Source: a virus
Length of the DNA stretch: 64,000 nt
Strand: one strand, 5' to 3'
IMG/VR virus record: IMGVR_UViG_3300008107_005910
Span: 12,771 to 76,770 of that record
Position numbers and translations under genes: made by a program. Below the pieces are notes generated by a model, which saw nothing but the letters and a program-made list of their open reading frames with translations, made no database searches and was not told the DNA's origin. Shown piece by piece: positions 63,445 to 64,000 of the stretch (positions within the stretch are counted from its first letter, which is position 1; every line of letters begins with the position of its first letter).

Positions 63445-63771
63445 ATGCCACATGCTTATACAGTAAAGAACTTAATGTGGACAGTGATAGTGACTCTATA
63501 TATACTAGTAGCACTAACGGGTTGTGGTAGTATACAGGTAACTGGATACACAATGGATCCTTTATATTATCGAGACTGTGGCCCAAATGGTAAGTTCACT
63601 CCACAGGATAAAGAGTGCAGACATCATAGAGAGCCACGAGCGGAATTCTATGCTGTACAGGAAATCAACTATAATGATACTTGGCGGAACCGGCCCGACA
63701 TATTGGAATGGTGTAGAAGGATTGAAAATCCCAAAATTGAGCGCAGGTGCCAGGGCCTGCCGGGTATGTGA
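63445..63771 (+). CDS. putative lipoprotein
   Basis: Hydrophobic signal VIVTLYILVA followed by lipobox LTG|C. Confidence 0.6.
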   Translation: MPHAYTVKNLMWTVIVTLYILVALTGCGSIQVTGYTMDPLYYRDCGPNGKFTPQDKECRHHREPRAEFYAVQEINYNDTWRNRPDILEWCRRIENPKIERRCQGLPGM

Positions 63772-63871
63772 ATAACTCTGTGGATAACCTGTGGATAACC
63801 AGGACTGGCACTGTGGATAACCTGTGAATAACCTGAAAGATATCCACAGGGTGTGAATAACCTGTGGATAA
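63767..63871 (-). promoter_or_regulatory. cluster of DnaA boxes (TTAT[CT]CACA x7, plus one inverted 8/9 match)
   Basis: TGTG[GA]ATAA at 63767, 63779, 63790, 63812, 63823, 63852, 63863; ATATCCACA at 63840. Confidence 0.85.
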
Positions 63872-64000
63872 CCAAACCAAACTGGACCAGCGGATTTGAG
63901 CTGGTTTTATATTTTTTCATTATATAGAACCGGTGAGGCACCCTCCACGTCCATCCCGAGTATAGCTCTTCGAATCTACTGTACAGTCTACCTGCTTTCT

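Follow-up and report, generated by a model that had tools for sequence, protein, structure and literature searches.

A phage-borne, one-direction array of consensus DnaA boxes, most likely read by host DnaA and unlikely to be an oriC-like origin

Why does a phage genome carry a dense cluster of perfect DnaA boxes in a gene-free stretch of its DNA, which protein reads them, and what does the phage gain from them? These questions arose from a sequence-only reading of the window (the whole stretch of DNA analysed here, 64,000 nucleotides), which had proposed that the phage either uses host DnaA at its own replication origin or titrates DnaA to block initiation in the host. The window covers the rightmost 64 kb of IMG/VR record IMGVR_UViG_3300008107_005910 (positions 12,771 to 76,770), and its end is also the end of the contig, 129 bp beyond the last box. 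The CheckV completeness of this record is 22%. Genes found near the array are phage genes, encoding a 1412-aa tail fibre, two endolysin-like proteins, an ATP-dependent ligase, ribonucleotide reductase subunits, radical-SAM enzymes and a virion protein. The source is best read as a jumbo-type phage that has not been cultured and is a distant relative of Pseudomonas phage PA5oct.

A pattern scan of the window found seven minus-strand TTAT[CT]CACA boxes in the 105 bp between 63767 and 63871, with distances between successive starts of 12, 11, 22, 11, 29 and 11 bp (Table 1). These are exactly the coordinates and spacings that had been noted from the sequence, and the single inverted near-match was also found where it had been placed. 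Beyond these seven, the 64-kb window contains no perfect TTATYCACA, and the 76,770-bp contig as a whole contains no additional perfect copy of TTATCCACA or TTATTCACA. Shuffling the sequence gave a mean of 2.3 boxes per window, and the Poisson estimate for seven boxes in 105 bp is about 1.5e-16. The array sits within the last 240 bases of the window, in the gene-free stretch separating two gene blocks. A minus-strand ORF spanning it (63669-63998) was considered and rejected: in the relative L127, no ORF on the minus strand reaches 60 aa at this place, and the lengths of the arrays vary by 11-bp units. The description of the boxes as helically phased holds for three adjacent pairs, which follow an 11-bp period and are separated by 2-bp gaps, but not for the remaining spacings of 12, 22 and 29 bp. 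Seven same-direction consensus boxes with three such pairs present the geometry of DnaA oligomerisation, and the cooperative DnaA arrays of oriC likewise run in a single direction with exact 2-bp gaps (PMC4451416).

Table 1. Positions of the boxes and neighbouring elements in the window, and of related elements in other viral sequences
Feature	Position	Strand or direction	Remark
Lipoprotein gene, 108 aa, conserved	63445..63771	+	stop TGA inside box 1
DnaA box 1	63767..63775	-	TTATTCACA
DnaA box 2	63779..63787	-	TTATCCACA
DnaA box 3	63790..63798	-	TTATCCACA; 2-bp gap from box 2
DnaA box 4	63812..63820	-	TTATCCACA
DnaA box 5	63823..63831	-	TTATTCACA; 2-bp gap from box 4
Inverted near-box	63840..63848	+	ATATCCACA; precedes boxes 6 and 7
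DnaA box 6	63852..63860	-	TTATTCACA
DnaA box 7	63863..63871	-	TTATCCACA; 2-bp gap from box 6
CAAACCRAA stretch, conserved	63872..63883	-	minus-strand U-tract UUUGGUUUGG after the hairpin; kept in all relatives, stems differ
Bidirectional intrinsic terminator	63884..63920		stem 63884-63891 pairs with 63900-63907, then T-run
RNA-like segment, 3' part	63921..64000	-	conserved; cut by the window end
Candidate small RNA	63884-64000 (runs off the window); L126:1240-1400; L127:10370-10530; L129:438-595; L130:800-965	-	
Klebsiella phage S16a array	L135, 3940-4110	one direction	GC-rich non-coding DNA; small genes downstream lead to an annotated phage RNA polymerase
Vibrio phage BD5 array	L136, 3930-4060	one direction	GC-rich non-coding DNA upstream of small genes
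Shigella phage A7 (T7-like) array	bases 81-147	one direction	

Metagenome contigs were scanned with an alignment of the lipoprotein encoded immediately upstream, and this yielded six close relatives, one of them from an 87-kb contig. All six carry the array in the same direction, starting at the lipoprotein stop codon or no more than about 10 bp from it, although the number of boxes ranges from 3 to 10. In these independent contigs from other samples, phage DNA flanks the array on both sides. The array lies mid-contig in L127 and in the record G002, and the equivalent region of G001, which holds a two-box remnant, is also mid-contig. The closeness of the array to the end of the contig had raised the suspicion of an assembly artefact, or of a fragment of host oriC fused to a phage contig. 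Because the relatives have phage sequence on either side of the array, and independent contigs share its position between phage genes, a host chimera is refuted and we give an artefact practically no weight. The inverted near-box recurs in L128, L130 and L138 and is absent from L125-L127 and L129.

The array begins exactly at the end of the lipoprotein gene, since the TGA stop codon falls within box 1. This gene is located downstream of the two endolysin-like genes and its product has nine homologues (56-95% identity) with an invariant lipobox cysteine, Cys27, and four more invariant cysteines. The 108-aa protein gave no Pfam or PHROG match; from its sequence features, it could be an outer-membrane spanin or an exclusion lipoprotein that blocks the receptor, of the T5 Llp type. 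On its other side the array is bounded by a hairpin terminator, and the boxes are therefore within transcribed DNA at an intrinsic terminator. The AT-rich tract that had been noted beside the boxes is present at about 63903-63926, but it is the T-run of this hairpin, and in L127 and L129 it is only about 11 nt long. Fold z-scores of the terminator were between -2.3 and -3.4 in three of four loci, with +0.33 in L130. The sequences of the hairpin stem vary between relatives, and a terminator scan matched the same site in L126. Because the conserved CAAACCRAA stretch is a U-tract on the minus strand, the hairpin terminates transcription in both directions.

Beyond the hairpin, a segment of about 110 bp is conserved in the relatives; it is followed by a leftward TTGACA-17-TATACT promoter, a near-perfect rightward promoter and a block of small same-strand genes, which are probably early genes. 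The leftward promoter has an extended -10 and is located, in the relatives, just past the point where the window ends. This promoter, together with the conserved segment and the hairpin, resembles a minus-strand gene for a candidate small RNA of about 130 nt. The RNA-like segment contains three compensated pairs and matched no Rfam family. At least 21 of the 80 clade loci contain its core, GGAUGGACGUGGAGG, which is present twice in L152 and L170. Since this core is kept mostly without boxes, the array is an add-on to a conserved cassette.

We then followed the array through the clade using the GP88-family gene just downstream, which has 258 relatives in IMG/VR, 80 of which were examined (L138-L217). 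Boxes were absent upstream of GP88 in 73 of these 80 loci; arrays of five or more boxes are present only in L138, L139 and L160, and four loci have two-box remnants. G001 (IMGVR_UViG_3300027710_000010; 299,582 bp, 83% complete) has kept the RNA/promoter cassette and has a single two-box site over its entire length, and G003 (185 kb) has no array or box site. Pseudomonas phage PA5oct, the nearest cultured relative through an nrdC.10-like protein (52% identity), matches in overall layout and has the array nowhere in its genome. Two endolysin relatives, L122 and L123, were discarded as comparators, having neither synteny nor boxes. The seven boxes are real, phage-borne, in a single orientation and optional within the clade. 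The best reading of the array is that of an accessory, lineage-specific insertion in a non-coding control region, between the lipoprotein gene and the RNA/promoter cassette, where the block of small, probably early genes begins.

Such arrays are not confined to these relatives. At least 120 viral contigs contain the exact double box; at least 48 of them have five or more boxes in 150 bp and at least 20 seven or more. Four contigs found by the box pattern alone (L019, L024, L034 and L063) turned out to have, like L127, the GP88 and nrdC.10-like genes downstream, and in these the order is terminator, array, strong promoter and small genes. In L024 a tRNA-Arg gene is followed directly by the array, which is thus located between the tRNA-Arg terminator and the promoter, an arrangement compatible with a transcription barrier. 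In 58 non-redundant viral arrays oriented as TGTGGATAA, the right-hand ORF points away from the array in 33 cases versus 13 (p = 0.005, from crude ORF calls and with statistics that ignore relatedness), left-hand neighbours show no strand bias (19 versus 21), promoter-like sites are directed outward, and the flanks have an AT content of about 50%. A search of 50,697 deposited phage genomes found a comparable array in only nine; two microvirus records also matched. Those of Klebsiella phage S16a, Vibrio phage BD5 and Shigella phage A7 belong to cultured, podovirus-sized phages (Table 1). Another group (L007, L008, L026, L027, L050, L053, L070 and L094, also L038 and L112) has arrays of 5-16 boxes, directly upstream of genes encoding a small protein, the large terminase (about 420 aa) and the portal protein (about 683 aa). 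The longest array seen was in L111 (2384-2669), with at least 16 one-direction boxes over 290 bp between divergent gene blocks.

The way in which the boxes vary tells something about the protein that reads them. We compared 40 boxes, with at most one mismatch, from seven loci. Eleven of the 12 single mismatches were at position 5, which is the N of TTATNCACA, and the base following TGTGGATAA was C in 36 of the 40, as at E. coli R1, although the spacers vary. DnaA is suggested as the reader because the variation concentrates at the position that DnaA tolerates. No DnaA domain (domain IV, DNA-binding) was found on the contig or on the records of four relatives, one of them 83% complete. Judging from these patterns, the boxes are most likely read by the DnaA of the host.

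Could the repeats be something other than DnaA sites? They might bind another phage protein, which could be unseen given that the contig is about 22% of the genome, or they might act as an RNA element in the 3' untranslated region of the lipoprotein mRNA, either as a sponge of GGA motifs for a CsrA-type protein or as 'rDnaA boxes'. The array is indeed transcribed ahead of the plus-strand terminator, and binding of DnaA to RNA boxes has been proposed, but the same study found no binding to RNA boxes in vitro (PMC10989985). Moreover, the arrays of L024 and L063 follow an upstream terminator and would be little transcribed, identical 9-mer arrays are present in unrelated phages, and variation is seen only where DnaA tolerates it. 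We rejected the CsrA-type sponge, as the G/A variation breaks the GGA motif, which is lost in 11 of the 40 boxes, and consider a reader other than DnaA very improbable. A different alternative keeps DnaA and changes its task. DnaA is largely membrane-bound, and on this reading membrane DnaA would pause or anchor the incoming DNA at the edge of the first-expressed genes, as proposed for T5, or would mark a packaging site. The array of the window does precede host-type promoters and small genes, those of S16a and BD5 are followed by a row of small genes, that of Shigella phage A7 is at bases 81-147 of its genome record, and a further viral clade has its arrays just upstream of the large terminase and portal genes, where cos and pac sites are usually found. 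About eight DnaA boxes are retained by T5-like phages in their untranslated injection-stop region (iss); the author who describes these boxes argues against their being an origin and proposes that they anchor to membrane DnaA (10.1101/866236). Like those, the boxes of the window are consensus host boxes in an untranslated region of a large phage (lytic in the case of T5), near first-expressed genes with host-type promoters. However, the T5 boxes form pairs with 3-bp gaps inside inverted repeats (IRC and IRD), in the terminal repeat at the edge of the first-step-transfer DNA (10.1101/866236), whereas ours run in one direction, three pairs of them with 2-bp gaps, beside a single inverted near-box; the array is mid-genome in the relatives and absent from most of the clade. 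The mid-contig position of the array in L127 and G002, and of its equivalent in G001, speaks against a unique physical end at the site, and the T5 model is itself a proposal. An entry or end signal of this kind is therefore improbable, though less so than a reader other than DnaA.

The remaining alternative is that the array is a replication origin or helps one, host DnaA assisting DNA opening or the loading of helicase. In its favour are the same-direction boxes with 2-bp gaps, as in the cooperative arrays of oriC, the strong promoters that flank the site, and the downstream nrdC.10-like gene, which T4-like phages share. By analogy, the array might work with the leftward promoter, whose transcript heads toward the boxes and ends at the A/T run and hairpin adjoining them. 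The R-loop origins oriF and oriG of T4, and the ColE1 origin with its DnaA boxes, are models for such a promoter-driven origin. However, a conserved unwinding element is absent, the only AT-rich stretch being the T-run, and the geometry is reversed: the AT-rich 13-mers of E. coli oriC are 5' of R1 read as TGTGGATAA, while the AT-rich tract of the phage is 3' of TGTGGATAA. The flanks of the viral arrays are not AT-rich either, and the transcribed segment itself, with its compensated pairs, resembles a stable RNA rather than an AT-rich region. Further against an origin are the absence of the array from most of the clade, the unstable number of boxes among close relatives, a DnaB-family helicase of the clade's own, encoded about 15 kb from the site, and the position of the T5 DnaA boxes away from the mapped T5 origins (10.1101/866236). 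GC skew, which had been suggested as a check, was analysed in L127 and G001 and gave no origin signal, since it tracks gene strand. In G001 the site falls within a plus-strand island of 18 kb, away from the global skew minimum; a local minimum at the array in L127 was rejected as an origin signal because it vanishes in this 299.6-kb relative. The trinucleotide pattern of a DnaA-trio was not found beside the boxes, but this uncalibrated pattern also missed E. coli oriC. On these features, an oriC-like DnaA-dependent origin is unlikely, and we regard the whole reading, including a helper role at a promoter-driven origin, as unlikely too. The first proposal of the sequence-only reading is consequently disfavoured.

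E. coli datA requires an IHF site and specific boxes to promote hydrolysis of DnaA-ATP, and we found no IHF consensus WATCAANNNNTTR in 63701-64000, although this consensus is that of E. coli and may not be that of the host. The likeness to datA is one of position: this non-origin DnaA-box cluster comes right after the strongly transcribed glyV-X-Y tRNA operon, DnaA box 1 overlaps with the terminator of that operon, and read-through is attenuated by the DnaA bound there (PMC10950094). The two differ in the quality of their boxes, as only one of the five datA boxes fits the stringent consensus (PMC4585315) compared with seven of seven TTATYCACA in the window. The chromosome of B. subtilis also has dense, intergenic clusters of consensus boxes outside oriC that are reported to restrain initiation and affect neighbouring genes (PMC3245932); those clusters serve the control of their own cell, whereas an array on a virus would act against its host. 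As to oriC itself, its oligomerisation arrays combine low-affinity sites with an unwinding element (PMC4451416), in contrast to the consensus boxes of the window, which have no conserved unwinding element. A resemblance to E. coli DARS1, an inverted box followed by two direct boxes (63840-63871 in the window), is limited by the spacers, 3 and 2 bp here versus 5 and 3 bp in DARS1, and by the loss of the inverted box from four of seven close relatives. DnaA boxes in phages have precedents in T5 iss, in T7-like phages and in the other viral contigs described above. The remark that such an array is unusual for a large phage has to be softened accordingly, given its recurrence and its publication in T5-like phages (10.1101/866236).

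The explanation we favour, and hold only tentatively, is that the array is a DnaA-loading cluster outside an origin, serving as a sink for DnaA, as a barrier to transcription, or as both. Its composition fits such a cluster, with consensus boxes crowded into a short stretch that does not look like an origin. DnaA binds consensus boxes in either of its nucleotide forms, and titration is a recognised means of control in E. coli (PMC12371093); host DnaA in either state would be expected to occupy the array. The 2-bp gaps would let adjacent DnaA molecules touch and form a stable nucleoprotein block, which would not open the DNA. As a sink, the array would capture more DnaA as the phage genome is copied, lowering the free initiator in the host. 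As a barrier, the block would separate two converging transcription units beside the bidirectional terminator, and DnaA bound at the asnC terminator and at the datA boxes does attenuate transcription (PMC10950094). Each part has its difficulties. Seven sites per genome make a large sink only late in infection, which counts against the sink. A pure sink also requires no fixed place or orientation, yet the bias of the right-hand ORFs hints at a position-dependent role; perhaps this bias could come from the location of non-coding space, or from shared ancestry. A barrier, on the other hand, looks redundant beside a good terminator, and it also counts against it that the order of array and terminator differs between the window and L024 and that left-hand neighbours show no strand bias.

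A narrower form of the sink corresponds to the second proposal of the sequence-only reading, in which the array would be a DNA decoy, with hundreds to thousands of replicated boxes soaking up DnaA and halting new rounds of host replication. We consider this possible but doubtful. Our literature search found no papers describing phage DnaA-box arrays as decoys. The known phage attacks on host replication use proteins; trapping the master initiator with a non-coding DNA element would be another route, and a very cheap one. If the decoy is true, non-coding elements for host takeover would have arisen repeatedly in unrelated lytic phages (the jumbo clade, T5-like phages, T7-like phages and the clade with arrays at the terminase gene). 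Whichever explanation holds, these data separate two ideas that are usually lumped together, that the boxes are real and selected and that they are a phage origin: the boxes are under selection yet an optional add-on, and they do not behave as a phage origin. The arrays in cultured phages such as Klebsiella phage S16a and Vibrio phage BD5 make the question testable at the bench, and an answer could illuminate the unexplained DnaA boxes of phage T5.

Several other observations were made on the contig and its clade. Like the source contig, 38 of the 80 clade contigs terminate within 6 kb upstream of GP88. A dispersed repeat was rejected as the cause of these breaks, the RNA-like core being single-copy in G000 and G001, and strain variation at an assembly-break hotspot is one possibility. 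Nearly all coding sequence of G001 is on the minus strand, interrupted by plus-strand islands at 72-78, 150-168, 204-210 and 276-299 kb. A search of G001 with Pfam DNA_pol_A and DNA_pol_B found no DNA polymerase, so that the polymerase of the clade is either divergent or encoded on the missing part of this record. No viral relatives of the LysM protein were found. The tail-fibre protein (55440-59678, minus strand) has an N-terminal Mtd_N domain (major tropism determinant), a fold known from the receptor-binding protein of a Bordetella phage. A small protein encoded at L127:13154-13498 (plus strand) has a weak GcrA-like match, below the Pfam cut-off, and this match, together with a permuted tmRNA, may hint at an alphaproteobacterial host.
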